NCBI GenBank assembly: GCA_028279745.1
Contig: JANQNC010000001.1
Location: 540,001-572,000 of the forward strand
Direction of reading: 5' to 3'
DNA length: 32,000 nucleotides
Source: Candidatus Nanoarchaeia archaeon
GTDB taxonomy: Archaea; Nanobdellota; Nanobdellia; Woesearchaeales; JANQNC01
Positions 2,359 through 27,055 of this stretch are shown here, piece after piece. The notes beneath the pieces were generated by a model, which did no database searches, was not told the origin of the DNA, and saw only the letters and a list, made by a program, of their open reading frames with translations. The translations under genes and the position numbers were made by a program. Numbering within the stretch: the stretch's first letter is position 1; each line of letters starts with the position of its first letter.

Positions 2359-4191
2359 CTATTTTTTAGACTTTTTATTTGATTCTTTACTTACTTTCGC
2401 CAACGCTCGTTTAATAGCAGAAGAAAACCAAACATAAGCAAACAACAACCCTGAAAAGAAACCGATAAAGAAAAGCAAAGACTGCTTTAATATGGGCGAT
2501 ACAAAAGTACGATCACTTCTCTTTTCAAAATACAGATCAGTATTAGAAAGCTCTAAAGCGTACTCTGCATACAGCAAAGCAGCACCAGGATCGTTCTCTT
2601 TTAGACTTGAAGCGTACTCATAGTAACTGTAACCAAGAATAGGAAAAACACCATAATGAGTTTGTCTCCCAATGCTTTGTTCAACTGCATCAAGCTTAAC
2701 ATCAATAAGATCACTAAACTCAGACCTATTAACGCTGACAGAACTCATAAAACCATTAATGTTAGCTTTTAACTCAGAAGATTTCAACAAACAGAGTTCA
2801 TACTCTTCTTGCTCAATAAGTTCTGTAATATCATCTAGCTCATCATTTAGAGCTATAATACTCAAAGGAAAATGAATCCTGCCATACTCAAACCTTTCCT
2901 GAGCTTCAGAAAGCTTCAAAAGACAAGCACTCTTCACTTTACTACTGTCCAAAATAAACTCAGTCTTACCAGAACCAAAAAAAGACGACCAAGATCTTAC
3001 TGTGTAAAGTCTTTCAATAGAAGTTGCCAGATAGTAAAGAGCAGAATCCGTCTCGTTAATCTTAAGCCTGTCAACTGTCAGATCCAAAAACCTCTCAGCA
3101 TCATAAAGCCTGTCTTTGACAATCATATAAGTCTGCAAATCAGTTATTGTGCTGTGGTTTGAGTTATTAAGCAAAGATCTAAATTTAGAAATCTGAGAGT
3201 TGGTGCTAGAAACTAACGAATTAATTTCATCAATAGAATAATCTTCTTGTACGAAATAAAGAAACTTGTGTCTTATATTATTTGAGTAACAGAAAGACGC
3301 AGCAGAATAGTGGTCATTTAGGCTTAGCGAGATGTTAGCTTTTTGAGAATCGTTAATTGAGACTTTATAGATTTCAGAAACATTAAAAGAAGAATTATCA
3401 AGCTGAACATCTGAAAATTTGTAACTAGATGACAAATCGTTGGAACGATTGCATAATTCAAAAGCTATCTTTTTCATTACATCTGCATAAGAGTTATCAA
3501 CAGAAAAATTAAACACTTCTTCTTTCCTTTTTCCTGTAAGAACATGCATAACATCATCTAAAGTAGCAACCTCAATAACTGAAATGTTATACTGAGAAGC
3601 ATAATCAGAAAGGTTAAGCTCTCTCTTTGTTATGTTGGTTGTGTTTGTTTCATTAACAGATACATTGATTATTTCTTCGGCATCGACAAGCGTGCTTCCT
3701 TTAGGGATCAAAACAGTAGTTATATTTGCTGCATATGCCGCGTCAACTTTCGCTTTTAATGCGCCGACATTACCTACAAAACCTCCAGAGTTGATAGTGC
3801 CTGTGATGGCAACTGAGTTATCAACCTCGTAACCTTTTAGCAATGAAGCGGTTAGAGATGCTATGCTGGCACCAGCAGAAGGACCTCCAATGATTGACGT
3901 GTCTGAAGTTATCCTATAAAAAAAATCATAGTTGTTGCAGTCAACATCAATATACCTGCAAGCAATATCTTTAGCAAATCTGGTTGAAAGTTGAGTGTCC
4001 ATCTTAGCCAAAGGGAAAGTTTCCATAAACACCCTGCCCCTGCCAGGAGTAATCTCCAAATAGAGACTTGCAGGGCTTCCTTGATATTCCCCATCTACAT
4101 CCTTAGCAGCCAATAAAGGCATATGACCTTCAACAGCAAAAGCTAAAGGAAACATCAAGAACACTAAAAAAAGTACCATTATCTTTTTCAT
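2359..4191 (-). CDS. Secreted, C-terminally membrane-anchored Lon-like (S16) serine protease
   Basis: Signal peptide MKKIMVLFLVFLMFPLAFA. The Lon proteolytic-domain motifs IIGGPSAGASIA (Ser) and GALKAKVDAA (Lys) are present. A long Asn/Ser-rich region follows, then a C-terminal TM helix and basic tail. The listed 695-aa ORF is trimmed to the Met at 4191, which has a TATA box about 27 nt upstream. Confidence 0.7.
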   Translation of the reverse strand: MKKIMVLFLVFLMFPLAFAVEGHMPLLAAKDVDGEYQGSPASLYLEITPGRGRVFMETFPLAKMDTQLSTRFAKDIACRYIDVDCNNYDFFYRITSDTSIIGGPSAGASIASLTASLLKGYEVDNSVAITGTINSGGFVGNVGALKAKVDAAYAANITTVLIPKGSTLVDAEEIINVSVNETNTTNITKRELNLSDYASQYNISVIEVATLDDVMHVLTGKRKEEVFNFSVDNSYADVMKKIAFELCNRSNDLSSSYKFSDVQLDNSSFNVSEIYKVSINDSQKANISLSLNDHYSAASFCYSNNIRHKFLYFVQEDYSIDEINSLVSSTNSQISKFRSLLNNSNHSTITDLQTYMIVKDRLYDAERFLDLTVDRLKINETDSALYYLATSIERLYTVRSWSSFFGSGKTEFILDSSKVKSACLLKLSEAQERFEYGRIHFPLSIIALNDELDDITELIEQEEYELCLLKSSELKANINGFMSSVSVNRSEFSDLIDVKLDAVEQSIGRQTHYGVFPILGYSYYEYASSLKENDPGAALLYAEYALELSNTDLYFEKRSDRTFVSPILKQSLLFFIGFFSGLLFAYVWFSSAIKRALAKVSKESNKKSKK

Positions 4192-4236
4192 TGACGGAGA
4201 ATTAAAGGAAGTAGTATAAAAATATTTAGGAAAACA

Positions 4237-4287
4237 GCTGTCCCGCCCAGCTGGCATGCGAAGCGGGCGTAAAGCCCACTGGTGGCG
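4237..4287. other. GC-rich palindromic element between divergent promoters (function unknown)
   Basis: 36 of 51 nt are G or C in an AT-rich context. It contains CCAGCTGG (4247-4254), GCATGC (4254-4259), stem CCCGC (4242-4246) / GCGGG (4263-4267), and an alternative stem GGGC (4265-4268) / GCCC (4274-4277). Confidence 0.3.
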
Positions 4288-4320
4288 TTTAAAAGCAAAT
4301 AATAACAAATCCATAACCTT

Positions 4321-4329
4321 TTTATAAAA
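4321..4329 (+). promoter_or_regulatory. TATA box upstream of topA
   Basis: TTTATAAAA is centred 30 nt upstream of the ATG at 4355. Confidence 0.4.
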
Positions 4330-4354
4330 CACATAAAACCAGCTTATAAACAAA

Positions 4355-6418
4355 ATGGGATATGAACTTATAATCACTGAGAAGCCAAGTTCTGCAAAAA
4401 AGATAGCGGACGCTTTAGCAGACAGCAAAGCAATAAAGAAAAACAATAAAGGGATCCCTTATTATGAACTTACACACAACAAAAAAGACGTCGTAGTTGC
4501 GTGTGCAGTAGGACACGTATATGGATTAGCTGAAAGAGAAAAAGGAGCTTGGACATACCCCGTTTATGACATCGAATGGAAACCAAGCTATGAGGTAAAT
4601 AAAGGTTCAGCACACACAAAAGCATACTTACAAACAATACAAAAACTAGCAAAAGGCGCAGATTCTTTCCTTGTTGCAACAGATTATGATATTGAAGGTG
4701 AAGTTATAGGGTTAAACGTAGTTAGGTTTGCATGCAAACAAAAAGATGCAAAAAGAATGAAGTTTAGTACCTTGACCAAAGGCGAATTAGTCAAATCACA
4801 CGACGGCGCGCAAAAAACACTAGACTGGGGACAGGCAACAGCGGGAGAGACAAGACACGAACTAGACTGGTACTACGGTATAAACATTTCAAGAGCGCTA
4901 ACACTGGCAGTAAAAGAAGCAACGGGCGGATACAAACTATTAAGTTCTGGGAGAGTTCAAGGGCCCGCACTTAAGATCGTTGCAGAAAAAGAAAAAGAGA
5001 TAAAAGCGTTTGTAGCAAAAAAATTCTGGCAAATACAGTTACTGACTGAAACTGATAAAGGAATACTAGAAGCGTGGCATAAAGAAGACAAATTCTGGGA
5101 AAAAGATAAAGCAGATGAAGTGATGAACAAAGTAGAAGGACAGAAAAAAGGAAAAGTAGCAAAACTAGACAAAAAAGAATTCAAACAACAACCCCCCAAC
5201 CCATTTGATCTTACTTCTTTGCAGACTGAAGCATATAAATTATTCAAAATTAAACCAAAAGAAACACTGGAACTTGCCCAATCACTATATACTGGAGGAT
5301 TCACCTCCTACCCACGAACAAGCTCACAAAAATTACCTGCAAGTTTGGATTACAAAAAAATACTAAACGGGCTGAAAGGAATTGGCGACTATAAGAAAAA
5401 ATGTGAAGAGCTGCTTTCTTTGAAAGAGTTAAAACCAAACGAAGGAAAGAAAACAGATGATGCCCACCCAGCAATACACCCAACCGGAGAACTTCCTGGA
5501 AACTTAAGTGCACGAGAGCAGAAAATATATGACCTGATCGTTAAAAGATTCATGGCAACTTTCGGAGAGCCAGCAATAAGAGAGACAAACACCATAACGA
5601 TAGATGTCAACACAGAACCATTTGTAGCTAAGGGAACTTTGACAAAAGAAAAAGGTTGGCACCACTTCTACGAACCTTACGTAAAACTAGAGGAAGAGGA
5701 ATTGCCTGTGTTAGAAAAAGATTCTGAGTTAGATATCAAAGATGTGACACAACACGAAAAAGAGACTCAGCCACCAAACAGATACAACCCTGCATCACTG
5801 ATCAAAGAACTGGAAAAGAGAAATTTGGGGACTAAAGCAACAAGATCAGCAATAATAGAAAACTTATACAATAGAGGCTACATAAAAGAAGAAAGAATGG
5901 AAGTTACTGAGCTAGGGATGAAAACAGAACAGGTATTGGAGAAGTATATTCCAGACATAATAGATGTCGAATTAACAAGACAGTTTGAGGAAGAGATGGA
6001 AGAAATCAGAAAGAAAAAAACAACCCGAGAAAAAGTCCTGGATAAAGCAAAGAAAGTACTTAATGACATTCTTAAAAAATTCGACACCAAGAAAAAAGAA
6101 GTTGGGAAAGAGTTATCAGAAGCAAATAGAACCACAATAAACGTAGCAAACTCAGTAGGTAAATGTCCTAACTGTGACGAAGGGATGCTGATCATACGAA
6201 AAGGAAAATACGGCAGATTTATCGGATGTAACAAGTATCCAGACTGCAAAACAATCTTTAAAGTTCCGCCAAAAGGAATGCTTAAACCGACAGACCACTT
6301 ATGTGATGAATGCGGGTATCCAGTTGTATACATAAAAGAATTCAAACAAAAAGCAAGAGAAGTATGCATCAATCCAAAATGTCCAACATGGGATCCTAAA
6401 TATAAGAAAAAAAGTTAG
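4355..6418 (+). CDS. topA: DNA topoisomerase, type IA (TopA / archaeal Topo III-like)
   Basis: TOPRIM start LIITEKPSSAKKIADAL, DYDIEGE, active-site Tyr context GGFTSYPRTSSQ, and C-terminal zinc ribbons (CPNCDEG...GCNKYPDC and CDECGYP...CINPKCP). Confidence 0.95.
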   Translation: MGYELIITEKPSSAKKIADALADSKAIKKNNKGIPYYELTHNKKDVVVACAVGHVYGLAEREKGAWTYPVYDIEWKPSYEVNKGSAHTKAYLQTIQKLAKGADSFLVATDYDIEGEVIGLNVVRFACKQKDAKRMKFSTLTKGELVKSHDGAQKTLDWGQATAGETRHELDWYYGINISRALTLAVKEATGGYKLLSSGRVQGPALKIVAEKEKEIKAFVAKKFWQIQLLTETDKGILEAWHKEDKFWEKDKADEVMNKVEGQKKGKVAKLDKKEFKQQPPNPFDLTSLQTEAYKLFKIKPKETLELAQSLYTGGFTSYPRTSSQKLPASLDYKKILNGLKGIGDYKKKCEELLSLKELKPNEGKKTDDAHPAIHPTGELPGNLSAREQKIYDLIVKRFMATFGEPAIRETNTITIDVNTEPFVAKGTLTKEKGWHHFYEPYVKLEEEELPVLEKDSELDIKDVTQHEKETQPPNRYNPASLIKELEKRNLGTKATRSAIIENLYNRGYIKEERMEVTELGMKTEQVLEKYIPDIIDVELTRQFEEEMEEIRKKKTTREKVLDKAKKVLNDILKKFDTKKKEVGKELSEANRTTINVANSVGKCPNCDEGMLIIRKGKYGRFIGCNKYPDCKTIFKVPPKGMLKPTDHLCDECGYPVVYIKEFKQKAREVCINPKCPTWDPKYKKKS

Positions 6419-12297: not shown

Positions 12298-12496
12298 GAA
12301 AAGACGAGCACAAAGAAAGGTATTTAAAATTTACCCCAAAAAATATCAGTTCACTCAGCAATGGTAACGAATGTTTAAATATCCATTTATTAATAAAGAG
12401 AGTTAAGATTGATTTAACGATCGATATTTATGCCTAGTCGATTTCTAGTTGTGCGCGCGTGCTGGTTGTACCTATGAAGAACGAGGACAACACAGT

Positions 12497-13744
12497 ATGA
12501 AAGTATTAATGTTTGGATGGGAGTTCCCACCCTTCAAGTCAGGAGGTTTAGGTACTGCTTGCTTTGACCTAACCAAAGGTCTAAACAATCAGGGTGTGGA
12601 GGTTACCTTTGTAATGCCAACCGCACCTGATGGCGCTAAATCCGACTTCGTTAAATTAGTTGCTGCTGATAAATTAAGCAGAACTAAAAAAATCAAGATA
12701 AGAAAGATAAATACAATACTGACACCATACATGACTTCTGAATCATATGATGACGCAATACATCACCACACAGAAAAGATAACAGGAACAAAAGGAAGCA
12801 AAGAAGTTTACGGAGATAATTTACATGAAGAAGTATACAGATATTCCGAAGTAGCAAAAGCGATAGCAGAAGATGAAGAATATGACCTAATACACGCACA
12901 CGACTGGATGACATACCAAGCAGGAATAAACGCAAGAGAGATTTCTGGAAAACCCTTAGTTGTACACATACACGCAACAGAGTATGACAGAACGGGAGGA
13001 AATCCAAACCCATACATTGCAGAACTAGAATATAAAGGAATGAGTGAAGCAGATATGGTAATAGCAAACAGCGAGTTTACCAAAAATAACGTAATAGAAG
13101 CATATGACATAGATCCAGAAAAAATAAAAGTCGTGCACTGGGGAATAGATCCTCATGACGAAAAATATAAAACAAACCACACCTCCGCAATAAGCAAAAA
13201 AGACAAACTAGTTCTATTCTTGGGAAGGATAACAATACAAAAAGGACCTGAATACTTTGTGAGAGCTGCAAAATTGGTTGCAGATCACGTGCCGAATGTA
13301 AAGTTTGTCATGGCCGGATCAGGAGACATGGCAAACAAAATGATAGAAGAAGCAAACCATCTAGGCTTAGCAGATAAAATATTATTTGCAGGATGGTTAA
13401 AAGGCAATGATTCACATAAAGCATTCCAGATGGCAGATCTATATGTTATGCCATCAGTATCAGAACCATTCGGGTTAGTTGCTTTGGAATCAATGGCAAA
13501 CGGAACACCAGTATTAATCTCAAAACAGTCAGGCGCATCAGAAGTGATACAAAACGCACTAAAAGTAAACTTCTGGGACGTAGCAGGAATGGCAGACAAA
13601 ATGATCGGAGTGCTGAAACATTCAGTACTGCATGAAGAACTTTCTGAAAACAGCTACAAAGAAGTGATGAGCTTCAGCTTAGATGAGCCAGCAAGAAAAA
13701 CAATAGATTGTTACGAACAAGCATTAGGGGGTGAAAGAAAATGA
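12497..13744 (+). CDS. glgA: Glycogen synthase, prokaryotic GT5-like (GlgA type)
   Basis: MKVLMFGWEFPPFKSGGLG (K-x-GGL motif), HAHDWMTY, and the E-x7-E region PSVSEPFGLVALESMANGTPV. The start is trimmed from a TTG (12449) to the ATG at 12497, which has GAGGA 9 nt upstream. Confidence 0.85.
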   Translation: MKVLMFGWEFPPFKSGGLGTACFDLTKGLNNQGVEVTFVMPTAPDGAKSDFVKLVAADKLSRTKKIKIRKINTILTPYMTSESYDDAIHHHTEKITGTKGSKEVYGDNLHEEVYRYSEVAKAIAEDEEYDLIHAHDWMTYQAGINAREISGKPLVVHIHATEYDRTGGNPNPYIAELEYKGMSEADMVIANSEFTKNNVIEAYDIDPEKIKVVHWGIDPHDEKYKTNHTSAISKKDKLVLFLGRITIQKGPEYFVRAAKLVADHVPNVKFVMAGSGDMANKMIEEANHLGLADKILFAGWLKGNDSHKAFQMADLYVMPSVSEPFGLVALESMANGTPVLISKQSGASEVIQNALKVNFWDVAGMADKMIGVLKHSVLHEELSENSYKEVMSFSLDEPARKTIDCYEQALGGERK

Positions 13745-14949
13745 CATCAATCTGTTTTTATTTCCAGGTACACCAACCATACAGAGTAAAAGAGTATTCT
13801 GTATTTGATATAGGATCTGGACAAAGTTATTTTGACGAAGTCAAAAATGAAGAGGTAACAAAAAAAGTTGCAAGAAAGTGTTACTTGCCAACCAACAAAC
13901 TATTACTAGACCTAATCAAAGAACACCAGGGAAGATTCAAAATAAGTTTCTCAATAACAGGCACAGCAATAGAACAGTTTGAAAAATACACCCCTGAAGT
14001 AATTCAAAGCTTCAAAGAGTTAGCAGAAACAGGTTGTGTTGAGTTTTTAGCAGAAACATACCACCACTCCCTCTCCTGGTTAAAATCAAAAGACGAATTC
14101 AAGAAACAGATAGAAATGCATGCAAAGAAGATAAAAGAACTATTCGGACAAGAACCAAAAGTATTCAGAAACACAGAGCTAATATTCAACAACGAGATAG
14201 CACATGATGTAGAGGAGATGGGATACAAAGGAATAATCGCAGAAGGCGCAGACAAAATACTTGGATGGAGATCGCCAGACCACCTATACAAAGCAAAAAC
14301 AACAGACAAAATAAAATTGCTTTTGAAAAATTATAAATTATCAGATGATATAGCTTTCAGGTTCTCAAACAAAGGATGGGAAGAACACCCTCTGACAGTA
14401 GACAAATACACACACTGGATAAAAGAAGTTCAAGGTGAATGTGTTAATCTGTTTATGGACTACGAAACATTCGGAGAACACCAATGGGAAGACACAGGAA
14501 TATTTGAATTCATGAGACACTTACCTGGAAGGTTGATGGAACATGGACACATAGACTTTAAAACACCATCAGAACTAGTAGACAGCTATGAAGTAAAAGA
14601 TGAACTGGATGTGCACCACATCATAAGCTGGGCAGACATGGAACGAGACATCACAGCTTGGCAAGGAAACAAGATGCAAGTGTCAGCACTAAATATGATA
14701 TACGATGTAGAAAAAGAGGTAATGCTGACAAATGACACCAAACTAATAGACGACTGGAGAAAACTAACTACATCAGACCACTATTACTACATGTGTACCA
14801 AATGGTTCTCAGACGGGGATGTGCACAAATACTTTTCACCATATGAATCACCTTATGACTCATTCATATACTTCATGAACGTATTGAATGATCTAAAGAT
14901 GAGAATACAACAGACACAAGAAAGAGTAGAGGTAGATAGTATTGAGTAA
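13741..14949 (+). CDS. Glycoside hydrolase family 57 protein (alpha-amylase / possible branching-type enzyme)
   Basis: ICFYFQVHQPYRV, KCYLPTN, FSITGTAIEQ, VEFLAETYHHSL and FRNTELIFN are the typical GH57 N-terminal blocks. There is an ATGA start/stop overlap with glgA, and GGGGGTGA lies 6 nt upstream. Confidence 0.85.
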   Translation: MTSICFYFQVHQPYRVKEYSVFDIGSGQSYFDEVKNEEVTKKVARKCYLPTNKLLLDLIKEHQGRFKISFSITGTAIEQFEKYTPEVIQSFKELAETGCVEFLAETYHHSLSWLKSKDEFKKQIEMHAKKIKELFGQEPKVFRNTELIFNNEIAHDVEEMGYKGIIAEGADKILGWRSPDHLYKAKTTDKIKLLLKNYKLSDDIAFRFSNKGWEEHPLTVDKYTHWIKEVQGECVNLFMDYETFGEHQWEDTGIFEFMRHLPGRLMEHGHIDFKTPSELVDSYEVKDELDVHHIISWADMERDITAWQGNKMQVSALNMIYDVEKEVMLTNDTKLIDDWRKLTTSDHYYYMCTKWFSDGDVHKYFSPYESPYDSFIYFMNVLNDLKMRIQQTQERVEVDSIE

Positions 14950-15250
14950 ACGAAAAAGACTGACCAAAGGACAGAGAAGAAGAAAGTTAGCAAAAAATGC
15001 TAAAGAAGAACAAAGCTTTGTGCTTGCAGATGGAAACAAGATAAGAAACTTGATTGATCTAGCTGAAGCAATGGAAACCATAAGCCATGAATTATATTCC
15101 CAACACGTAAACGAAGAAAAAAATGATTTCAGCACCTGGACCAAAGAAGTAATAGGTGAGAAAACATTAGCAAGAAACTTGTTGGGTGTAAGCGACAAAA
15201 CACAAGCGCAGATAACAATACTAAAACACATAGTAAAAAACACAACCTAA
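14942..15250 (+). CDS. Small protein of unknown function, paralog 1 (basic N-terminus plus NEEKNDFS-W domain)
   Basis: The TTG start overlaps the GH57 stop by 8 nt, with GAGGT 8 nt upstream. Residues 25-80 align without gaps to residues 22-77 of the next gene. The N-terminus is KRKRLTKGQRRRKLAKNAK. Confidence 0.6.
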   Translation: MSKRKRLTKGQRRRKLAKNAKEEQSFVLADGNKIRNLIDLAEAMETISHELYSQHVNEEKNDFSTWTKEVIGEKTLARNLLGVSDKTQAQITILKHIVKNTT

Positions 15251-15265
15251 GGGGGTGAAAACAAA

Positions 15266-15718
15266 ATGAACCAAAACCTAAAATCAGAAGACATCGATTT
15301 TGTGCTTTCAGATGTTGATCCAGAACACTACTTCATAACAAGAAACGGAGAAGAGATAAAAAGCATGCAGGACATGGCAGACAGACTAAGCCAGATGGAT
15401 GAAGAAACATTTAATCATCACGCAAACGAAGAAAAAAATGATTTCTCAAACTGGATACAAGATGTAGTAAAAGACAGAGAGCTAGCTCAAGAGATAAAAG
15501 ATAAAGGAAAAACAGAAGCGGCTGATGAGATAGCATCAAAAGTAAAAAGATTAAACAAAGTAAAAGAACATCTAAAAGTCATAGAAGACCATGAGAAGAA
15601 AGCATTTGATGAATTAGAAAACACAGTAAAATCAAAAGGAAGAAACCCAATACACGACTACGTGTATGGAATAATAATAGGAACTGTGACTGGCTTATTG
15701 CTTGGATCGTTACTGTAA
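15266..15718 (+). CDS. Small protein of unknown function, paralog 2 (NEEKNDFS-W domain, charged helix and C-terminal TM anchor)
   Basis: GGGGGTGA lies 7 nt upstream of the ATG. It shares a domain with the preceding gene. The C-terminal hydrophobic segment YVYGIIIGTVTGLLLGSLL sits at the very end of the protein. Confidence 0.7.
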   Translation: MNQNLKSEDIDFVLSDVDPEHYFITRNGEEIKSMQDMADRLSQMDEETFNHHANEEKNDFSNWIQDVVKDRELAQEIKDKGKTEAADEIASKVKRLNKVKEHLKVIEDHEKKAFDELENTVKSKGRNPIHDYVYGIIIGTVTGLLLGSLL

Positions 15719-15748: not shown

Positions 15749-17536
15749 ATGAAAAAAGAGGCAGACTACTTACTAGAATCATCCTGGGAAGTATGCAACA
15801 AAGTAGGTGGAATATACACAGTATTATATTCAAAAGCCGAAAAGACAAAAGCAGTATACGGAGAAAAATATTTCTTAATAGGACCCTATCTGCCAGGCAA
15901 AAAAGTTCCCGAATTTGAAGAAAAATCCCCTCCACCAGACATACAAAAAACATTCTTAGAACTAGAAAAACAAAATATAACCTGTTATTTTGGGACGTGG
16001 GCAATAAAAGGAGAACCAAACGCAATACTAATAGACTTCTCAAGAATAACCGACCAGATAGACTCTGTCAAAACAACACTTTGGGAAAAATACAGAGTAG
16101 ACTCACTAAATTCAGGTTGGGAATTCAACGAACCAATCATATTCAGCTGGGCAATAGGAAAATTCATAGAAGAATTCTCAAAAAACTGTTACGGAAAAAT
16201 AATTTCTCAATTTCACGAATGGATGACAGGCGCAGGACTGTTATACCTAAAAGACACAAACCCTTCAGTCGGGACTGTGTTTACAACACACGCAACAATG
16301 CTTGGAAGATCAATAAGCGGAAGCGGAAGAAAACTATTCGGAGAGATGGAAAACATCAATCCGGAGGAAGAAGCATACAAGATAGGGGTTCATTCAAAAT
16401 TCCAGATGGAAAGAGCATGCGCAAAAGAAGCAGACATATTCACAACAGTATCAGACACAACATCGATGGAAGCAGAAATAATACTTGGAAGAAAACCAGA
16501 CATAATAACATACAATGGGTTGGATATGGATGAATACCCCAACTTTGAAGACAGAGCAGTCAAGCACAAAATGGCAAAAGAAAGAATAAAAGACATGATT
16601 GCAGCATACTTCTTCCCATACCAAAACTTCGACTTAGATGAAACCTTTATCTACTACACATTCGGAAGATATGAATTCCACAACAAAGGCATAGATACAA
16701 CAATAAGAGCACTTTCCAAAGTAAATCAAGCACTGAAACAAAAAAAATCAAACAAAACAGTGGTAATGTTCTTCTGGATACCTGCCGGAACAGCAAAAAC
16801 AAAAACAGAGATATTGGAGAATAAAGCGTTCTATGATGATATGAAAACCGCAATAAACAGACACTCAATGGACATAAAAAGAAAAATACTGAATGCAATA
16901 ATAAACAAGAAAGCAATATCAAAAATAAAACTGATTGATAAAGAATTTGAAAGGGAGGTAAGAAGGGATGTGATGAACTTCACAAAAGAAGGACAACCCC
17001 CGATATGCACACACGAACTCTACGGCGAAAATCAAGACGCAATAGTCGGAACTTGCAGAGCAGCAGGATTAAATAATCTGCCAGAAGACCGAGTTAAAGT
17101 AATATTCCACCCAGCATATCTAACTGGAACGGATGGCTTGTTAGATCTAACTTATTACGAGGCGATGGTAGGCGGACAAGTAGGAATATACCCAAGCTAC
17201 TACGAACCTTGGGGATACACACCTTTAGAGACTGCAGCGTTTGGCGTCAGTGCCATAACAACTGATTTAGCAGGGTATGGAAGATGGCTGATGAACAAAA
17301 CAGACCAAACAAAAAAATGCGGCGTACAAGTCCTAAAAAGATATGAAAAAACTGATGAGGAATCAGAAGAAGAGCTCGCAAAAATACTGCTAGATTATGT
17401 GTTAATGACAAAAAAACAAAGAATGAACCTTAAACTAGACGCAAAAAGGATTGCAGACATGTCAGACTGGAAAACCTTGGTAGAACATTACATAGAAGCA
17501 CATAATGGAGCAATGAAAAAAGCAGAACAAAGATGA
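15749..17536 (+). CDS. Glycogen synthase, GT3 family (animal/fungal type)
   Basis: It is colinear with my memory of human GYS1 over nearly the full length: WEVCNKVGGIYTV, FHEWMTGAG, VFTTHATMLGR, GRKPDI, FGRYEFHNKG, PPICTH, DRVKVIFHPAYL, YPSYYEPWGYTP. Confidence 0.93.
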   Translation: MKKEADYLLESSWEVCNKVGGIYTVLYSKAEKTKAVYGEKYFLIGPYLPGKKVPEFEEKSPPPDIQKTFLELEKQNITCYFGTWAIKGEPNAILIDFSRITDQIDSVKTTLWEKYRVDSLNSGWEFNEPIIFSWAIGKFIEEFSKNCYGKIISQFHEWMTGAGLLYLKDTNPSVGTVFTTHATMLGRSISGSGRKLFGEMENINPEEEAYKIGVHSKFQMERACAKEADIFTTVSDTTSMEAEIILGRKPDIITYNGLDMDEYPNFEDRAVKHKMAKERIKDMIAAYFFPYQNFDLDETFIYYTFGRYEFHNKGIDTTIRALSKVNQALKQKKSNKTVVMFFWIPAGTAKTKTEILENKAFYDDMKTAINRHSMDIKRKILNAIINKKAISKIKLIDKEFEREVRRDVMNFTKEGQPPICTHELYGENQDAIVGTCRAAGLNNLPEDRVKVIFHPAYLTGTDGLLDLTYYEAMVGGQVGIYPSYYEPWGYTPLETAAFGVSAITTDLAGYGRWLMNKTDQTKKCGVQVLKRYEKTDEESEEELAKILLDYVLMTKKQRMNLKLDAKRIADMSDWKTLVEHYIEAHNGAMKKAEQR

Positions 17537-19467
17537 ACCCGATAGAACAAAAAGACATCATAGGCAATGAAATTCTAAAAAGACACGTTGACAACCAAAT
17601 AAGCTTCTTACTTTCAAACGAGATAGGAGGATATTTCTCAATCCCAGTTGCAGGAGAAAACATAAGCAAATACCAAGGAGTCACAACTTGCCACTTTCAC
17701 AACGGAGGGTGGGATCTGTTTAAAGTCATAGAAAACATAAAGCACAATAAACCCGTAACAAAAGTAAACAATGAACTATTCCAGCTAACAAGACTGGGAG
17801 AAGGATTCAAAGAAACATTCTTCATGCCTTACTATTATAACGCAGTTGTGTATGAAACTGAAGGCTTGGACGAAGTAGATGTTATTCTGGATATGCGGCA
17901 CATACATGACTTCAGCACAGAAGGAAGACTGTATAATATTTATGAAGAAGATGGAAAAATAATTGTAGAATACAAAAAAGAAGGACAAGAAGACAAAAAC
18001 AGAATATTCGAAGAATACTTTGTATACTTAGTGATTGACTCTGACAGTATTGACTATAAAAAGATAGAAAAGTGGGAAGAAACAAAATATTCCTATGATG
18101 AGTACAGAAAAAGCCACCCTTCAACATGGCATGTGTTTAACGCACTTAAACTAAAACCAAAACAAAACTCGCCAATCGTATTTTCTTACTCAAGAGATAA
18201 AGAAAAAGCAGTAAGTCTTGCTAGCTACATAAGAAGAAATCTGGAGATACTAAAAAACTCACAGAAAAAATATGTTGAAGAAGCAACAAGCACAAACCTA
18301 AAGATAGACAATCCTGAAGTAATGATAGCATACAAATGCGCACTAAAGTCAATAGATGAACTAAGTGTGACAATAAATGGCAAACACGGAATCTATGCAG
18401 GGTTGTGGTGGTTCTTTCAGTGGTGGTTAAGAGATGAAGCACAATCAATCAAAGCATTAATGATACAAAAAAAGTATCTAGAAGTAAAAGAAATCCTGTT
18501 TAGAGAAATCGAGATAATATTGCTTGATGGAAGAGTGCCAAACAGGTATCCCTATTCTGAGTTGGGGTCTGCAGATGGAGTTGGATGGGTATTCAAAAGA
18601 ATACACGACTTTTTAGACATTTTAGAAAAAGAAGAATCAAGAGACAGATATATCAACATAACAGACTTATTAGAGATACAACAAAAACTAGAGCTAACAA
18701 TCACAAAAGTAAGAAAACACTACATGAATGAAAAAGGACTGATGTTCAATAATGCAAAAGAGACTTGGATGGACACCACACTGAGTGACGGAAGCGATAC
18801 AAGAGAAGGGATGAGAATAGAGATACAAGCACTACTGCTATCACTATATGGGCTAATGATCCATTTATCAGAAATGTTAGGAAATGAGAAACAGTTAGAA
18901 AAGTACAAAGGGTACAAAGAAGACTTCTTGAAAACTGTAAGAGAGGATTTCTGGAACGGCTCATATCTAATTGATGGCATAGAGTTTGACGGAAGCAAAG
19001 ACGAAACGATAAGACCAAACCCATTCATCGCAGCATATCTGCACCAAGATATACTCTCAGATGAAGAATGGGAAAAATGTTTTGAGACAATACTTCCCAA
19101 ATTATGGTGTGACTGGGGTGAATATGGTGGGGGGCTGGCAACAATAGACAAATCCTCGCCACTATTCCACGAATGTTACTCAGGAGAAAAACCTGATAGT
19201 TATCATAGGGGTGACAGCTGGTATTTTCTAAACAATCTAGCAGCAATAATGATGCATAGGATAAATCCTAAAAAGTTTAAGATCTACATAGACGCAATAT
19301 TAAAATCATCAACATACGCAAGTCTTTATTCAGGAGTCATAGGACAAATGTCTGAATTAAGCTCAGCAAAAAGATTTGAAAGTAATGGAAATTTAGCACA
19401 AGCATGGAGCGCGGCGTTCTACATCGAGCTGATAAACGAGCTCTATGGCGAGGAGGGAGCAAAATGA
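17533..19467 (+). CDS. Amylo-alpha-1,6-glucosidase / glycogen debranching enzyme family (GDE_C type)
   Basis: GLWWFFQWWLRDEAQSI, IRPNPFIAA, GGLATID...YSGE, YHRGDSWYFLNN and AQAWSAA. There is an ATGA overlap with the GT3 gene. Confidence 0.85.
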   Translation: MNPIEQKDIIGNEILKRHVDNQISFLLSNEIGGYFSIPVAGENISKYQGVTTCHFHNGGWDLFKVIENIKHNKPVTKVNNELFQLTRLGEGFKETFFMPYYYNAVVYETEGLDEVDVILDMRHIHDFSTEGRLYNIYEEDGKIIVEYKKEGQEDKNRIFEEYFVYLVIDSDSIDYKKIEKWEETKYSYDEYRKSHPSTWHVFNALKLKPKQNSPIVFSYSRDKEKAVSLASYIRRNLEILKNSQKKYVEEATSTNLKIDNPEVMIAYKCALKSIDELSVTINGKHGIYAGLWWFFQWWLRDEAQSIKALMIQKKYLEVKEILFREIEIILLDGRVPNRYPYSELGSADGVGWVFKRIHDFLDILEKEESRDRYINITDLLEIQQKLELTITKVRKHYMNEKGLMFNNAKETWMDTTLSDGSDTREGMRIEIQALLLSLYGLMIHLSEMLGNEKQLEKYKGYKEDFLKTVREDFWNGSYLIDGIEFDGSKDETIRPNPFIAAYLHQDILSDEEWEKCFETILPKLWCDWGEYGGGLATIDKSSPLFHECYSGEKPDSYHRGDSWYFLNNLAAIMMHRINPKKFKIYIDAILKSSTYASLYSGVIGQMSELSSAKRFESNGNLAQAWSAAFYIELINELYGEEGAK

Positions 19468-20285
19468 ACAAGAAAATAACATCTCTATTAATCATATTAT
19501 TAATGATTCCAGCTGCATTAGCAACAGTAACACTAACATCAGACCAACAAGAATATGAACCAGGAGATAGGGTTGAGTTAGTTTTAAATTACACCAACAC
19601 CGGGAAATTCAATGTAACAACCAAATTTATACACCTAGAAGTTCAAAAGTTCGGGATAACTGCAATAGCACAGACAAGAGACCAAAGGAAATCACTGATG
19701 CCTGAACAAATCGAGTCAGGAATACATACATTTTCTTTGCCTGTTTTCTCCCCACCCGGACAGTATGACATAATCGGATACGTAGAGCATGATGATGGAA
19801 GTTTAACAGAAGAGGTTACAATAGAGATAACTGCAAAAGAAAGCATGCTGTTTAAGATAGTAAGATGGGCGTTTATAATATTGTTTATACTGATCTTGTT
19901 AATTATACTGACTAAAATAGTTAGATTTGTTAAAAGAAAATCTAAAGACAAACCTCATCGAAATTCTGAACCCAAAGAAGAACACAAAGGGATGGTCAGA
20001 CAGAAACCCAAAGAAAAAGATGAGATGACAAAGAAAACAGAGACAAGTTTGAGTAAAACTTCAGACGAGAAAATTCAAAAGCAGAAGAAAAAAGAAGAGA
20101 TATCAAAGGCAAAAGAATACTTAGCAAAACCCAAACCTGAAGAAGTAAAAAAAGAAACGCCAAAAGGGATAGAAAAGAAAACAAAAGAGCCAGAAGCTAA
20201 TGTTAATGCTGCCGCAGAATCAGATGACGATATGCCTGCACCTAACGAAGAAGAAAAACAAGGAAAGTATAATAACGAATTATAG
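19464..20285 (+). CDS. Single-pass membrane protein: signal peptide, Ig-like beta-rich ectodomain, TM helix, Lys/Glu-rich tail
   Basis: The start is trimmed to the ATG at 19464, which forms an ATGA overlap with the GDE stop and has GGAGGG 6 nt upstream. Signal peptide MNKKITSLLIILLMIPAALA, TM helix WAFIILFILILLIILTKIV, and a low-complexity charged tail of about 110 aa. Confidence 0.7.
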   Translation: MNKKITSLLIILLMIPAALATVTLTSDQQEYEPGDRVELVLNYTNTGKFNVTTKFIHLEVQKFGITAIAQTRDQRKSLMPEQIESGIHTFSLPVFSPPGQYDIIGYVEHDDGSLTEEVTIEITAKESMLFKIVRWAFIILFILILLIILTKIVRFVKRKSKDKPHRNSEPKEEHKGMVRQKPKEKDEMTKKTETSLSKTSDEKIQKQKKKEEISKAKEYLAKPKPEEVKKETPKGIEKKTKEPEANVNAAAESDDDMPAPNEEEKQGKYNNEL

Positions 20286-21338
20286 ATACTTGTCCAGTTT
20301 TTTCTTCTTAAGCTCATGAACTACTTCTTTTACCTTCTGTGCATCTTTCTTAGGGCAAACAAGCAAAGCATCATCAGTGTCAACAACAATCATATCCTTA
20401 ATGTTGTACAAAGCTACAAGCTTTTTCTTGTCTTTAGAAAGAACCACATTGCCCTTAGAGTTCATAGCCAATGTTTTTCCAAATGCAACATTTCCACTTT
20501 TATCTTTTTTATGAACTTCTTCCATAAGTCTCCAGTCTCCTACATCTTCCCAAGGGAAGTCTCCTTTAACGACAACAGTCTTAACAGAGTTCTCCATAAC
20601 CCCAAAATCAATTGAAACCTTTTTCAGTTTAGAGAAAACTTCATGCTTAACCTTATCACTAAAATTTGATCGCTTTATCTTGATTAGGCCTTTATACAGT
20701 TGAGGCATGTACTTCTTTATCTCTTCCAACATAACAGAAGCTTTGAAAACAAACATGCCAGAATTCCACAGATAGTTGCCTGCTTTAAGGAATTGCTTAG
20801 CTTTGGATAGATTTGGCTTTTCCTTAAACTGTTTCAGTTCTAAAACCTTAATCTTTCCCTTATTGAACTGTTCGCCATGTTTAATATAACCAAAACCTGT
20901 GTTAGGGAAAGTTGGCTTAATACCAATCAAGACAATATGGTCGTTCTTATCAGCTTCATCATAAGCGGCTTTAATGTGTTGTAAATATTTTTTAGGATTC
21001 AAATAAACGTGATCTGCAGTTTCTACAAAAATAACTGCATCTTTGTGTTTCTTCATAACTTCTATGCATGACAAACCAATCGCCGCTGCAGTGTCTCTTC
21101 CGAATGGTTCTAACACATAGCTAACCTTAGGAAGAACTTTCTTGATATGCTTGCTTAAAGTCTTGTTTGTTGAGATAAAAATATTCTTCTGAGGAATCAA
21201 GGGTTTTAATCTGTCTACAGTGTCTTCAATAATCGATTTTTTTGTAACAATCTTAAGGCACTGTTTAGGCATACTTATCCTTGAAAGAGGCCAGAACCTC
21301 TCTCCTTTGCCGCCTGCCATAATAACTGAAACTAACAT
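20280..21338 (-). CDS. manC: Mannose-1-phosphate guanylyltransferase-like sugar nucleotidyltransferase
   Basis: MLVSVIMAGGKGERFWPLSR is the G-x-G-x-R-x-W-PLS signature. There is no C-terminal cupin/PMI domain. The start is set at the ATG at 21338, with AGGTGG 6 nt upstream. Sugar specificity cannot be proven from sequence. Confidence 0.75.
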   Translation of the reverse strand: MLVSVIMAGGKGERFWPLSRISMPKQCLKIVTKKSIIEDTVDRLKPLIPQKNIFISTNKTLSKHIKKVLPKVSYVLEPFGRDTAAAIGLSCIEVMKKHKDAVIFVETADHVYLNPKKYLQHIKAAYDEADKNDHIVLIGIKPTFPNTGFGYIKHGEQFNKGKIKVLELKQFKEKPNLSKAKQFLKAGNYLWNSGMFVFKASVMLEEIKKYMPQLYKGLIKIKRSNFSDKVKHEVFSKLKKVSIDFGVMENSVKTVVVKGDFPWEDVGDWRLMEEVHKKDKSGNVAFGKTLAMNSKGNVVLSKDKKKLVALYNIKDMIVVDTDDALLVCPKKDAQKVKEVVHELKKKKLDKYL

Positions 21339-21339
21339 A

Positions 21340-21693
21340 TTAACCACCTAACCCGATGAACGATACACCGATTATTATCAGAGCAATACCTGCCCATTTC
21401 CAAATGTTCATCTTTTCTTTTAAGAATCTGATAGATAAAAGCTCAACCCAGACATAGGTTAAAGCAATGAAAGGGTAAACTATTGATAGCTGGCTTCCCT
21501 TAAGCGAAAGAGCCCAGATAAAGAACACTGTTGAAGCACCATAAAAGAATACTGCAGTGTAAAGACGCCAGTTAGTGATTATTGCTTTTAGTTTAAATGA
21601 AAGTTTATCTGCTCCAAACTTGAAGAATAAAGCTCCTACTGCACCTAACAAAGATGCGATTAAAGTCAATCCTAATGCTGCAATTGAAGTCAT
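21340..21693 (-). CDS. Small 4-TM EamA/SMR-like (DMT superfamily) membrane protein, subunit B
   Basis: Four hydrophobic helices. It is a paralog of the upstream gene (LSIVYPFIALTYVWV / NIWKWAGIALIIIGVSFIG versus LSVLYPIIATSYVWV / NFWKWIGVFSILLGVSLIG). There is an ATGA overlap with the upstream gene. Confidence 0.6.
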   Translation of the reverse strand: MTSIAALGLTLIASLLGAVGALFFKFGADKLSFKLKAIITNWRLYTAVFFYGASTVFFIWALSLKGSQLSIVYPFIALTYVWVELLSIRFLKEKMNIWKWAGIALIIIGVSFIGLGG

Positions 21694-22034
21694 TTAGAAT
21701 CACCTCTACCGATCAAACTAACACCTAACAAGATTGAAAACACCCCAATCCATTTCCAAAAGTTTAAGGGTTCCTGGAATAGGAAAAAAGCTGCAACCGT
21801 AACCCAAACATAACTTGTTGCAATAATTGGGTATAACACAGATAAGTCTCCCCCTTTTAACGCGATAACTAAAAGAACCGCACCAACACCATAAAGTGCA
21901 AGACCAAGAGCAATCCATAAAACTTTATAGTAAAATAGTTCCTGACTAACACCCGTCTTATAGATTATCTGGGCAGAGCTAGTCACAAGGGTACAAAAAA
22001 CCATCAAGATAACAGCCCATAACTTAGTTGCCAT
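21690..22034 (-). CDS. Small 4-TM EamA/SMR-like (DMT superfamily) membrane protein, subunit A
   Basis: See the paralog above. The tandem half-size arrangement recalls the ArnE/ArnF-type heterodimeric flippases. Confidence 0.6.
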   Translation of the reverse strand: MATKLWAVILMVFCTLVTSSAQIIYKTGVSQELFYYKVLWIALGLALYGVGAVLLVIALKGGDLSVLYPIIATSYVWVTVAAFFLFQEPLNFWKWIGVFSILLGVSLIGRGDSK

Positions 22035-22718: not shown

Positions 22719-23780
22719 ATGAACAAACAGATAAAGAGTTTAGTTGAAGCAAGCAAAAAAGTCCTTAAGGACTGTGCATTGCCAAACGGAGCGTTAGTTG
22801 CAGCAAATTCTACTAAAAAATATTTTCCAAAAGGAGCAAAAAATTACAAGTATGTGTGGCCAAGAGACGGAGCATACAACTGTATGGCAGCAAACATCTT
22901 AGGTGTTAAAGTTCAAGAGAAATTCTTCAAATGGTTAATTAAAGCAGAAGGATGGAAAAAAACTGGTTTGTTTTATGAAAAGTATTACGTTAATGGGAAA
23001 AAAGCATTACATCATCTTCAACCAGACCAAACAGGAAGCGTACTAATGGCAGTACACGATTATTACAAAGACAAAAAGATGCCTCCTGAAATTATGAAAT
23101 TAGTTTCACACTCAGCAGAAGGACTATGTAAAATATGGCAGAAAGATCATTTTACAGTTGTCACTCAAGACTTATGGGAAGAAAGACTATGTTTCCCGGA
23201 CTATAAAGAAAACTTCACATATTCGCTTGCGTCATGCAGCAAAGGGCTAATGTTAGCAAATGAGATGATACCCAACAAAAAATGGCTAAAAAAAGCATGT
23301 GAGATGAAAGAAACTGCGCTTAAAGCAAAAAGTTATTTCTTTAGAGCAAATGGAAGTGTTCCTGACAAAAGGGTTGATGCATCTTTGATTGGGTTAACGT
23401 GGCCATTTGAGATTGTTGATGCAAAAGAAAAAAGAATGGTTGCAACTATCAAAAATATTGAAGGAAAACTGGGTGGAATGAAAGGAATACATCGATATGA
23501 AAATGATGAGTATGATGGTTGGATGTACAAAAGATACGAACACAGAAAAAAGGGTGCAGGGTATTGGCCTTTGTTAACTTTCTGGATGTCAATATACTAT
23601 GTCGAGAAAGGCAATAAGAAAAAAGCACTTGCTTATTACAATAAAGTTCTAAAAGATTTGAAATCAGACCATATACCAGAACAAATATTCAACAACAAAA
23701 TACAAATTTCAGTTTCTCCACTGGCTTGGTCACACTCAATGTTTGTAATAGCTTCTAAAAAATTAGGATATCTAAAATAA
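22719..23780 (+). CDS. GH15 glucoamylase-family protein, catalytic (alpha/alpha)6 domain only
   Basis: YKYVWPRDGAY, QDLWEERL (general acid region), GYWPLLTFWMSIYY, IPEQI and PLAWSHSMF. Confidence 0.85.
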   Translation: MNKQIKSLVEASKKVLKDCALPNGALVAANSTKKYFPKGAKNYKYVWPRDGAYNCMAANILGVKVQEKFFKWLIKAEGWKKTGLFYEKYYVNGKKALHHLQPDQTGSVLMAVHDYYKDKKMPPEIMKLVSHSAEGLCKIWQKDHFTVVTQDLWEERLCFPDYKENFTYSLASCSKGLMLANEMIPNKKWLKKACEMKETALKAKSYFFRANGSVPDKRVDASLIGLTWPFEIVDAKEKRMVATIKNIEGKLGGMKGIHRYENDEYDGWMYKRYEHRKKGAGYWPLLTFWMSIYYVEKGNKKKALAYYNKVLKDLKSDHIPEQIFNNKIQISVSPLAWSHSMFVIASKKLGYLK

Positions 23781-25487
23781 TCATCTAATGTAAGCCTTGC
23801 TTACATACTGCAGAACCATTCTTCTAGTCGTAAAGAAAGAACCATTAAACGCAATAGCATTCTTCATAATATGAATCCATTCATCACGTCTACTGTAGTA
23901 AGTAGGCAAAATAACATATTCTAACTTACTGTAAATGTCTTTAGCATCTTCATCATCAACGTTAGCATCTGCATCAAGACTAACTTCAGTTGGCTTATGA
24001 CCTATACCCCAACCAGTAATGTTTTCAGCATGGCCTTCAATCCACCAACCATCTAAAACTGAAAAGTTAGGGACTCCATTGTGAGCAGCTTTCATTCCTG
24101 ATGTTCCAGAAGCTTCTCTTGGTCGCATAGGTGTGTTAAGCCAGACGTCCACACCAGATACCATCAACTTTGCCAAGTCCATATCATACCCTTCTAAGAA
24201 TACAACTTTAACTTCACCACCTAGTTCTTTAGCTACATCATAAATCCGTTTAATATTATCTTTACCTTCACCATCGTTAGGGTGAGCTTTACCAGCGAAA
24301 ACAATCTGGATGTTGCCTGCGTTTTTGACAACTTCTCTTAATCTTTTCAAATCATGGAAAATTAAGTGAGCCCTTTTGTAGCCTGTAGCTCTTCTAGCAA
24401 AACCAATAGTGAAAATTTCAGGATCATAATCAATGTCTGTTTTTTCCTTGATAACTTGGAATAATCTTCTTTTAGCATTTTGGTGAGCTTCCCAAATCTC
24501 GTTGCTTGGAATAACAACAGCACTTCTTAGGTTGAATGGGTCTACTCTCCAGTCCTCCAAATGTTTGTCGAAAACTTCGGCTAGCTCATCACAAGTCCAA
24601 GTGTTACTATGGATACCGTTAGTTATAGCTCTAATGTTATAACCAGGGAACATGTTTTTAGAAACTACTGAGTGTTTCTTTGCAACAGCATTTGAGAATC
24701 CAGATAAGTTTAATGCAAGTTGAGTTGTGTTTAACTCACTATCTCCTGCGTATTTTTTTATTAAGTCAATCGGGAAATTTTCAGTATCAATTATAGATTG
24801 CACAAGATTGTAGTCAAACTTATCATGACCTGCAGCAACAGGTGTGTGAGTTGTGAAAACACAAACATCCTTTACAAGTTCTTCGTTGTTGTCAGAATCT
24901 TTTAGAAGTTCTAAAGTTAGTAAAGAAGCATGACCCTCATTCATATGGAACTTTTCTAATTTGTCAAAACCTAAAGATTCAACAAGTCTAACCCCTCCAA
25001 TACCAAGAATAATTTCTTGTTTAAGCCTGTAGGATCTATCTCCACCATAAAGTCTCTTGGTTAACTGTCTGTCTTGTTCCTCATTGCCTTCAACATCCGC
25101 ATCCAGCAAGAAAACAGGAATAATTCCACCATTAACACTTTCTATCTCATATCTCCAAGCTTTAAGTTTAACATCTCTGCCTTCAATCTTTACAGACACG
25201 TCATTTGGCATCAGTTCCATAAAATCAGCAGGATTCCATTTACTAGGTTGTTCTGACTGATTTCCATCAGGATCAACACTTTGATCAAAGTAACCTTCTG
25301 CGTGAAGCAGGGATACTGCAACTAACGGCAGTTTAAGATCTGCAGCAGCTCTTAACGTGTCTCCAGCAAGAACTCCTAAACCACCAGAATATGTAGGAAT
25401 ATCAGATTGTAAAGCAATTTCCATAGAAAAATACGCAATCCTAGGATGAGTTGGTTCTATAACTTCCTCAATCTTCTTCAATTCCAT
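23781..25487 (-). CDS. glgP: Alpha-glucan phosphorylase (GT35, short GlgP-type)
   Basis: AYFSMEIAL...PTYSGGLGVLAGD, and EASGTSGMKAAHNG (the PLP lysine context). GAGGTGA lies upstream of the ATG. Confidence 0.95.
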   Translation of the reverse strand: MELKKIEEVIEPTHPRIAYFSMEIALQSDIPTYSGGLGVLAGDTLRAAADLKLPLVAVSLLHAEGYFDQSVDPDGNQSEQPSKWNPADFMELMPNDVSVKIEGRDVKLKAWRYEIESVNGGIIPVFLLDADVEGNEEQDRQLTKRLYGGDRSYRLKQEIILGIGGVRLVESLGFDKLEKFHMNEGHASLLTLELLKDSDNNEELVKDVCVFTTHTPVAAGHDKFDYNLVQSIIDTENFPIDLIKKYAGDSELNTTQLALNLSGFSNAVAKKHSVVSKNMFPGYNIRAITNGIHSNTWTCDELAEVFDKHLEDWRVDPFNLRSAVVIPSNEIWEAHQNAKRRLFQVIKEKTDIDYDPEIFTIGFARRATGYKRAHLIFHDLKRLREVVKNAGNIQIVFAGKAHPNDGEGKDNIKRIYDVAKELGGEVKVVFLEGYDMDLAKLMVSGVDVWLNTPMRPREASGTSGMKAAHNGVPNFSVLDGWWIEGHAENITGWGIGHKPTEVSLDADANVDDEDAKDIYSKLEYVILPTYYSRRDEWIHIMKNAIAFNGSFFTTRRMVLQYVSKAYIR

Positions 25488-26948: not shown

Positions 26949-27055
26949 CACCAACTGAAGAAGAACAGGTAGACGTAGAAGAATTCTCAACAGCGGAAGC
27001 ACTATCAGGAAAAACAGAAAAACAGCTAGAGGAAGACAAACTGGCAAGTTCTGTA

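Follow-up and report, generated by a model that had tools for sequence, protein, structure and literature searches.

What do two small, adjacent genes of similar sequence do in the middle of an operon of glycogen enzymes? The question is raised by a 32,000-nucleotide (nt) stretch of contig JANQNC010000001.1 from a Candidatus Nanoarchaeia archaeon (hereafter the window), in which the genes P1 and P2 lie between a GH57 glycoside hydrolase gene and the gene for a eukaryote-type (GT3) glycogen synthase. An initial annotation had left the domain shared by the two proteins without a family, and had proposed that it is an accessory module of the glycogen machinery that might dock onto the GT3 synthase. 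We found that P1 and P2 belong to the OrfY-like/DUF5752 family, each with a single repeat, and that, in this subfamily, the domain is linked to glycogen genes, the conserved partner being GH57/GlgA and not GT3. As a tentative reading, favored with somewhat less than even confidence, we propose that P1 and P2 are non-catalytic targeting adaptors for the GH57/GlgA glycogen machinery of DPANN-type archaea. The coordinates of all features are collected in Table 1.

Residues 25–80 of P1 align with residues 22–77 of P2 without gaps and with 19 identities in 56 positions, exactly as had been counted at first, and BLASTP gives 20 identities in 62 positions with an E value of 8e-15. The common domain comprises about 64 residues and contains H-x-NEEKNDFS-x-W in both proteins. 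The 22-nt stretch AAACGAAGAAAAAAATGATTTC, already recognized as identical in the two genes, has no third place in the window, not even when up to 2 mismatches are tolerated, and none is expected in shuffled sequences. Recent gene conversion was considered as the source of this identity and rejected, given that the two genes share just 93 of 168 nucleotides (55%) over the whole domain; the stretch is accordingly explained as seven identical residues encoded by the same A-rich codons. When all open reading frames (ORFs) of at least 60 amino acids (aa) in the window were scanned with a hidden Markov model, the domain was found in P1 and P2 only.

Both are real genes, as had been supposed, because an ortholog pair 49–54% identical to them (54% for P0002, the ortholog of P2) sits at the same position on metagenome contig L001. 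Each is preceded by a Shine-Dalgarno motif, and the tight coupling of the operon is evident from its spacing: GlgA and GH57 overlap by 4 nt, GH57 and P1 by 8 nt, and GT3 and the debranching enzyme GDE by 4 nt, with gaps of 15 nt between P1 and P2 and of 30 nt between P2 and GT3. The identities first given to the flanking GH57 and GT3 genes are borne out by their Pfam matches (Table 1).

The two proteins differ outside the shared head. In P1, the single OrfY-like (DUF5752) repeat is preceded by a basic N-terminal tail and followed by a helix that contains the motif ILKHIV. In P2, the single repeat leads into a long charged helix, and the chain ends in a hydrophobic one. The basic character of the P1 N-terminus and the helical nature of the P2 C-terminal half, both read from the sequence at the outset, agree with the present results: the tail of P1 carries the net charge listed in Table 1, and AlphaFold2 places the terminal helix of P2 at residues 129–149, after the charged one. 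The hydropathy of P2 reaches its maximum of 1.8 at residue 132 of 150. P2 thus has a single hydrophobic helix near its C-terminus, no N-terminal signal and an N-terminal domain predicted to be cytosolic, which are the criteria for a tail-anchored protein. In the AlphaFold2 models, with a predicted local distance difference test score (pLDDT) of 91 for P1 and 89 for P2, the head is a small two-stranded hairpin packed on helices, is mainly helical, and carries the motif HHxNxxKNDFxxW.

To which family does the head belong? The gathering cut-off of the Pfam model DUF5752 (PF19027), 23 bits, is narrowly missed both by P1, at 22.5 bits (E 8e-5), and by P2, at 22.9 bits (E 6e-5), and each aligns only to positions 22–105 of the 208 in the model. 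A profile of the domain matches the PDB entry 4cso, which is OrfY of Thermoproteus tenax, with an E value of 1.1e-3 when built from 4 sequences and of 6.4e-8 (35.3 bits) when built from 71. The 71-sequence profile aligns to both repeats of 4cso_A (residues 26–89 and 167–191), and the NDF(A/S)RW motif likewise aligns twice in OrfY, at residues 64–85 and 167–191. Foldseek searches of the PDB lead to the same structure: for the P1 model, 4cso is matched at a probability of 0.98 with a query-normalised TM-score of 0.48–0.50 over 83 aligned columns, and for the P2 model it is the best match at a probability of 0.82; nothing besides 4cso exceeded a probability of 0.1 for either model. The earlier impression that the domain fits no family is therefore to be revised, although the family it joins is not a characterised one with an unrelated role. 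OrfY shares its fold and the NDF(S/A)xW motif with P1 and P2. However, OrfY and the Pfam model hold two tandem repeats in one chain of about 210 residues, whereas P1 and P2 hold one repeat each on separate genes, P1 adding a basic tail and P2 a predicted membrane anchor. P1/P2 is a split, single-repeat variant in which two adjacent genes supply the two repeats.

Membership in this family gives no mechanism, because OrfY itself has no assigned function; its crystal structure dates from 2014. No discussion of a role was found in the searchable literature on DUF5752/PF19027 and on OrfY of T. tenax, and OrfY is not mentioned in the trehalose-operon and genome papers of T. tenax. The molecule name in 4cso reads 'ORFY PROTEIN, TRANSCRIPTION FACTOR', a label for which no support could be retrieved from the literature. 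A single published remark terms the OrfY-like domain enzymatic (PMC5906684). The domain might on that account be a small enzyme acting on a glucan or a sugar nucleotide, and conserved His, Asn and Asp residues would suit such a role. We regard this as very improbable, since the domain has only about 64 residues and matched no catalytic fold, a single operon can contain copies whose tails differ greatly, and the remark itself comes with no supporting data alongside.

The family is visible only by exhaustive HMMER searching, since word-indexed protein searches returned few matches (2 for a single protein and 27 with the 71-sequence profile). Applied to 1.84 billion representative proteins, the exhaustive search recovered 4376 clusters at E ≤ 1e-3, mostly from DPANN archaea, of which 2319 also reach E ≤ 1e-10. 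Among the 150 best relatives, 134 match DUF5752 at E ≤ 1e-3, about 45 contain two tandem repeats, and some carry the module fused to KaiC-type ATPases, HerA-type ATPases, CarboxypepD_reg repeats, a cold-shock domain or a TrmB domain. Fusion of OrfY-like relatives to Cren7 is also mentioned in the article cited above (PMC5906684). The near-invariant positions of the domain are F, G, L, H, N, D, F, W, L and A.

The genomic surroundings of the domain were then compared across species-representative genomes. The scan used a 4-sequence alignment as query, with the pattern H[VA]NE[EQ][KR]ND and similarity to P1, the broad domain alignment having no segment conserved enough for a genome scan; it gave 80 loci, which are skewed to P1-like relatives because of that query. 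By their titles, the loci are mostly from Woesearchaeota, Nanoarchaeia, Aenigmarchaeota, Iainarchaeum and Micrarchaeota, with a few from Patescibacteria, Saccharibacteria and Chloroflexi, and the operons most similar to that of the window are labelled Woesearchaeota. Neighboring genes were identified by comparison with the enzymes of the window. A GH57 gene lies within 1 kb of the domain gene in 46 of the 80 loci and within 10 kb in 47; within the latter distance, GlgA is found in 42 loci, GT3 in 16 and GDE in 12. By our own estimate, the chance of such GH57 adjacency in a genome of about 1 Mb with one such cluster is well below 1%. Independent metagenome contigs keep the same gene order, and two to four copies of the domain stand side by side in 40 of the 80 loci. 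A similar arrangement is seen on one bacterial contig (L004/L005:2751-12453), where a fusion of 1620 aa with alpha-amylase-like and GT5 synthase domains comes before an ORF of 111 aa, the domain protein P0168 (99 aa), a GH57 of 808 aa and a GH77.

Some further observations on these loci may be recorded here. On contig L004/L005, which is bacterial and encodes an NAD-dependent DNA ligase, genes for a trehalose-6-phosphate phosphatase and a GH65 lie upstream. Four loci (L008, L010, L011 and L013) and about 25 more are titled 'uncultured Methanosarcinales archaeon' and have the same glycogen operon with OrfY-like genes; this label may be unreliable. The nearest relative of P1 besides its ortholog, P0004 (L002:1088-1381 and L003:439-732; 45% identity), adjoins genes for an FKBP and an epimerase, so close relatives of P1 also exist outside the glycogen operon.

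Gene fusion is the strongest evidence for the link to GH57. In six Aenigmarchaeota-labelled loci and in one metagenome locus, GH57 and a domain C-terminal to it form a single ORF of 486–519 aa (Table 1); the counterpart in the window is the overlapping pair of GH57 and P1, which are in different frames. A second sugar-metabolism enzyme is joined to the module in seven or eight loci of Woesearchaeota, where a transketolase C-terminal subunit (Transket_pyr + Transketolase_C) ends in an OrfY-like repeat, its gene sitting about 5 kb 3′ of the glycogen cluster. None of the fusions found joins the domain to GT3. The earlier proposal that the GT3 synthase is the partner, with docking after the manner of the glycogenin C-terminal peptide, is thereby not upheld. 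The two cases are alike in that a small element adjoins the GT3 gene in the window, but GT3 accompanies the domain in a minority of loci, the fusions are to GH57, and the module is a folded domain rather than a short peptide.

The ends attached to the head fall into types that recur. A copy with a basic N-terminal tail is present in 35 of the 50 GH57-linked loci, with a charge of +4 to +33; some of these tails are AKK-rich like those of histone H1, including the AKK repeats of the orthologs in L017, L023 and L051. A helix motif that follows the head, Q-x-x-x-LKH-x-V, occurs in 22 of 45 proteins of the basic class, among them P1 (QITILKHIV), and in none of 29 anchored ones. A copy with a predicted C-terminal membrane anchor is present in about 24 of the 50 loci, a count that includes the window, whose anchor scores just below the hydropathy threshold. 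These proteins consist of the head, a variable and often acidic linker (50 to more than 280 aa in the P2 orthologs) and a hydrophobic helix, and GxxxG occurs in 22 of the 24 scored tail anchors, often as a glycine zipper like that of P2 (GIIIGTVTGLLLG). Both tail types are conserved classes, so that the attention first drawn to them was well placed, and the idea of targeting through the tails is consistent with this conservation.

The basic tails also bring up another possibility, namely that P1 is a DNA-binding autoregulator of the operon and that membrane-bound P2 sequesters it by head–head pairing, as PtsG does Mlc. Basic N- or C-terminal tails are widespread in the family, its relatives include the TrmB and cold-shock fusions and the Cren7 fusion mentioned above, and the name of 4cso contains the words 'transcription factor'. 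But the tails are conserved in composition only, that name is without retrievable support, and neither Pfam nor Foldseek detected a helix-turn-helix or other DNA-binding fold in the head. Moreover, the genes lie mid-way in a translationally coupled operon of enzymes, and the domain is fused to enzymes, both of which would be unusual for a repressor. On balance, such a regulator is distinctly improbable.

A third arrangement is seen in seven loci, where the gene for a ParA/MinD/CbiA-family ATPase begins 0–23 nt 3′ of a P2-like gene that lacks the anchor. Four of them (L027, L029, L050 and L079) have the operons most like that of the window. All seven ParA-linked P2-like proteins end in (I/L)xxLKKV(Y/F)(R/K), for example IIAHLKKVYR. 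In several Aenigmarchaeota loci, ParA-like genes are located 50–400 nt from the domain gene, including beside the GH57 fusion in L074 and L075. A tblastn search with the ATPase of L007 found no ParA/MinD gene in the 32-kb window.

How might P1 and P2 then work? The adaptor reading is based on one conserved head, interchangeable ends, fusion in cis to enzymes, and the frequency of pairs and tandem repeats. According to this reading, contact with the glucan machinery would be made through the head, most likely by binding GH57, and the head would probably pair with a second one, as two OrfY repeats share one chain. The tails would set the location: the arginine/lysine tail of P1 may hold the complex on a polyanionic surface, for example nucleoid DNA/RNA or acidic lipids, and the glycine-zipper tail anchor of P2 may attach it to the cytoplasmic membrane. 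Where a related operon encodes a P2-type protein that lacks the anchor, positioning may be done by the ParA/MinD-type ATPase encoded just downstream. Glycogen synthesis or the placement of granules could be affected in this way.

Two known systems offer a comparison. PhaM of Ralstonia eutropha tethers polyhydroxybutyrate granules to the nucleoid through a lysine-rich, histone-H1-like tail, and binds and activates the synthase. P1 resembles it as a small protein that is encoded with storage-polymer enzymes and has a low-complexity K/A/R-rich tail, but the two are unrelated in sequence, glycogen takes the place of polyhydroxybutyrate, and the conserved partner is a GH57 hydrolase/transferase instead of a synthase. 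The McdAB system of carboxysomes is a ParA/MinD positioning system with a small adaptor, and basic N-terminal peptides are typical of ParA partners. The seven loci in which a ParA/MinD gene follows a P2-like gene with a conserved C-terminal peptide are reminiscent of it; in contrast, the window has a predicted transmembrane anchor in place of the ATPase gene, and no homology to McdB or ParB exists. By analogy, the mode of working would be most like that of storage-granule tethers such as PhaM and of ParA-adaptor systems such as McdAB, and unlike glycogenin docking.

A bolder form of the proposal, which we consider rather unlikely, is that the head and its interchangeable anchors make up a modular system for positioning glycogen enzymes or glycogen particles in DPANN cells. 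The anchors would then be an H1-like basic tail, a glycine-zipper anchor, or a ParA/MinD ATPase together with the C-terminal docking peptide, and enzyme-fused heads (GH57, transketolase) would dock onto anchored heads. If correct, it would be the first positioning of a storage polysaccharide described in archaea, and a family of more than 4000 clusters would thereby gain a function.

Several results weigh against the adaptor reading. The 58% of loci with adjacent GH57 describes this subfamily rather than all 4376 clusters, and 32 of the 80 loci have no glycogen gene in the available flanks, at least 19 of them with full 10-kb flanks; the neighbors of these 32 are heterogeneous, with no dominant theme. 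In the reverse direction, 80 metagenome loci encoding a GH57 56–68% identical to that of the window were taken, of which 71 could be evaluated. The domain is downstream of or fused to GH57 in 21 of them, and 50 have no copy; hence GH57 does not need the module. Mean domain identity is 0.37–0.40 both within and between tail classes, with no clean split; the nearest neighbor has the same type of tail in 33 of the 45 basic copies and in 15 of the 28 anchored ones, and clustering by tail class is not decisive given the equal mean identities. No locus was found to combine an anchor with an adjacent ParA gene, an exclusion that is suggestive, the lineages being few and related. The near-invariant H, N, D and W could form a ligand or active site, and the enzymatic remark and the 'transcription factor' name count on the same side. 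Accordingly, the view of the initial annotation that this is a glycogen accessory module holds in part: it agrees with the adjacency to GH57 and GlgA and with the fusions, but the module is an optional, lineage-specific accessory and not a core GH57 subunit, being neither glycogen-specific nor obligatory.

These results have to be weighed for two further explanations. The first is that the head is a carbohydrate-binding module for alpha-glucan itself, in which case glycogen particles would be directly coated or tethered by P1 and P2, and GH57 would have its glucan-binding domain in the fused copy. Such a role would suit the position in glycogen operons, the fusion to the C-terminal end of a glycoside hydrolase, the usual place of binding modules, and an invariant Trp accompanied by Asp, Asn and His, which are typical of sugar contacts; the CarboxypepD_reg repeats of some large relatives are typical of surface proteins. 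It is nevertheless improbable. No known binding-module family was matched, either in Pfam at E ≤ 1 or among PDB folds, a mainly helical fold is unusual for such modules, and both the fusions to KaiC, HerA and transketolase and the 32 loci without glucan genes fit poorly.

The second is that the head is a small-molecule sensor, comparable to ACT or CBS domains, for a sugar, a sugar phosphate or a nucleotide sugar, which would modulate the fused or neighboring enzyme or ATPase, with P1 and P2 acting in trans as regulators of GH57 or GlgA. A ligand site would agree with the presence of near-invariant H, N, D and W within or close to a single loop, the module is joined to GH57, a transketolase subunit, KaiC-type signalling ATPases and the sugar regulator TrmB, and its dispensability for GH57 in many lineages is what would be expected of a regulatory add-on. 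On the other hand, the N-D pair is at the start of a predicted helix and the F/W residues are spaced like core residues, so the conservation may be purely structural. A sensor would also leave the membrane anchors, basic tails and ParA/MinD neighbors unexplained, and Foldseek matched no known ligand-binding fold. A sensor is thus unlikely in our estimation; were it true, sugar metabolism would have a new small regulatory domain.

Whichever of these explanations applies, the DUF5752/OrfY-like family, with a crystal structure and no assigned role, now has a concrete and testable glycogen-operon context. In archaea with small genomes and in some bacteria of candidate phyla, the glycogen operons have the module after GH57; one lineage has the two fused, and three alternative putative localisation devices accompany the module, which bears on the organisation of carbon storage in minimal-genome cells.

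The wider window is an island of glucan and glycolysis genes, which include a PfkB kinase, a class-II fructose-bisphosphate (FBP) aldolase, PGK and a sugar-phosphate nucleotidyltransferase in addition to the genes of Table 1, and it also contains the archaeal markers NMD3 and NurA. The true start of GlgA is probably the ATG at 12497 (MKVLMFGWEFPP...), 16 codons 3′ of the listed TTG, because this ATG fits the usual N-terminus of such synthases.

Table 1. Features of the P1/P2 operon in the window (positions 1–32,000) and of related loci on other contigs
Feature	Position	Strand	Basis
GlgA-type (GT5/GT4-like) glycogen synthase, start of the operon	12449..13744	+	PF08323 (Glyco_transf_5) + PF00534 (Glycos_transf_1)
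GH57 glycoside hydrolase, 402 aa	13741..14949	+	PF03065, E 4e-81
Shine-Dalgarno-like GAGGT, 8 nt 5′ of the P1 TTG, within the 3′ end of the GH57 gene	14929..14933	+	sequence
P1, 102 aa, TTG start	14942..15250	+	ORF
P1 basic N-terminal tail (MSKRKRLTKGQRRRKLAKNAK), net charge +10 over 20 residues	14942..15004	+	sequence composition
P1 OrfY-like domain, residues 22-85, with H-V-NEEKNDFS-T-W	15005..15196	+	alignments
22-nt identical stretch AAACGAAGAAAAAAATGATTTC, copy 1, encodes NEEKNDF	15109..15130	+	sequence
Shine-Dalgarno GGGGGTGA, 7 nt 5′ of the P2 ATG	15251..15258	+	sequence
P2, 150 aa, ATG start	15266..15718	+	ORF
P2 OrfY-like domain, residues 19-82	15320..15511	+	alignments
22-nt identical stretch AAACGAAGAAAAAAATGATTTC, copy 2	15424..15445	+	sequence
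P2 long charged helix, residues 82-124, links head to anchor	15509..15637	+	AlphaFold2 secondary structure
P2 predicted C-terminal tail anchor (HDYVYGIIIGTVTGLLLGSLL), GxxxGxxxGxxxG glycine zipper	15650..15715	+	hydropathy, AlphaFold2
GT3 (eukaryote-type) glycogen synthase	15749..17536	+	PF05693, E 1e-153
GDE_C amylo-alpha-1,6-glucosidase-like debranching enzyme, end of the coupled block	17533..19467	+	PF06202, E 4e-31
GH15, window glucan island	22719-23780		
Glycogen phosphorylase, window glucan island	23781-25487		
GH57-domain fusion ORFs	L036:4583-6058, L068:1372-2844, L071, L072, L074, L075, L149:1204-2664		Pfam-confirmed in L036, L068
Transketolase-OrfY-like fusion	L034:14628-15905; also L021, L028, L031, L037, L046, L062; shorter form L040:14359-15369		
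ParA/MinD-linked loci	L007:8318-9094, L027, L029, L050, L069, L079:10771-11547, L087		ATPase gene adjacent

Some minor features of the window were noted as well. An ORF of 293 aa (19404-20285) shares its first 64 nt with the end of the GDE gene, its likelier start being an internal Met at about 19464 (MNKKITSLLIILLMIPAALA); it has a signal-peptide-like start, a hydrophobic segment in mid-chain and a long K/E-rich C-terminal region, and no convincing Pfam family was found for it. Two EamA-type half-transporter genes (117 and 114 aa; 21340-22034), which overlap by 4 nt and adjoin the nucleotidyltransferase gene (20280-21347), suggest a paired small multidrug-resistance-like transporter. Just past the glycogen phosphorylase gene lies the usual MoxR-VWA pair (25896-28135), with a MoxR-type AAA ATPase first and a DUF58/VWA protein after it. 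Finally, a Lon_C-domain ORF of 695 aa with a TTG start (2359-4446, minus strand) and a topoisomerase IA ORF (4355-6418, plus strand) overlap by 92 nt at their 5′ ends, so that one of the two listed start codons is probably too far upstream.

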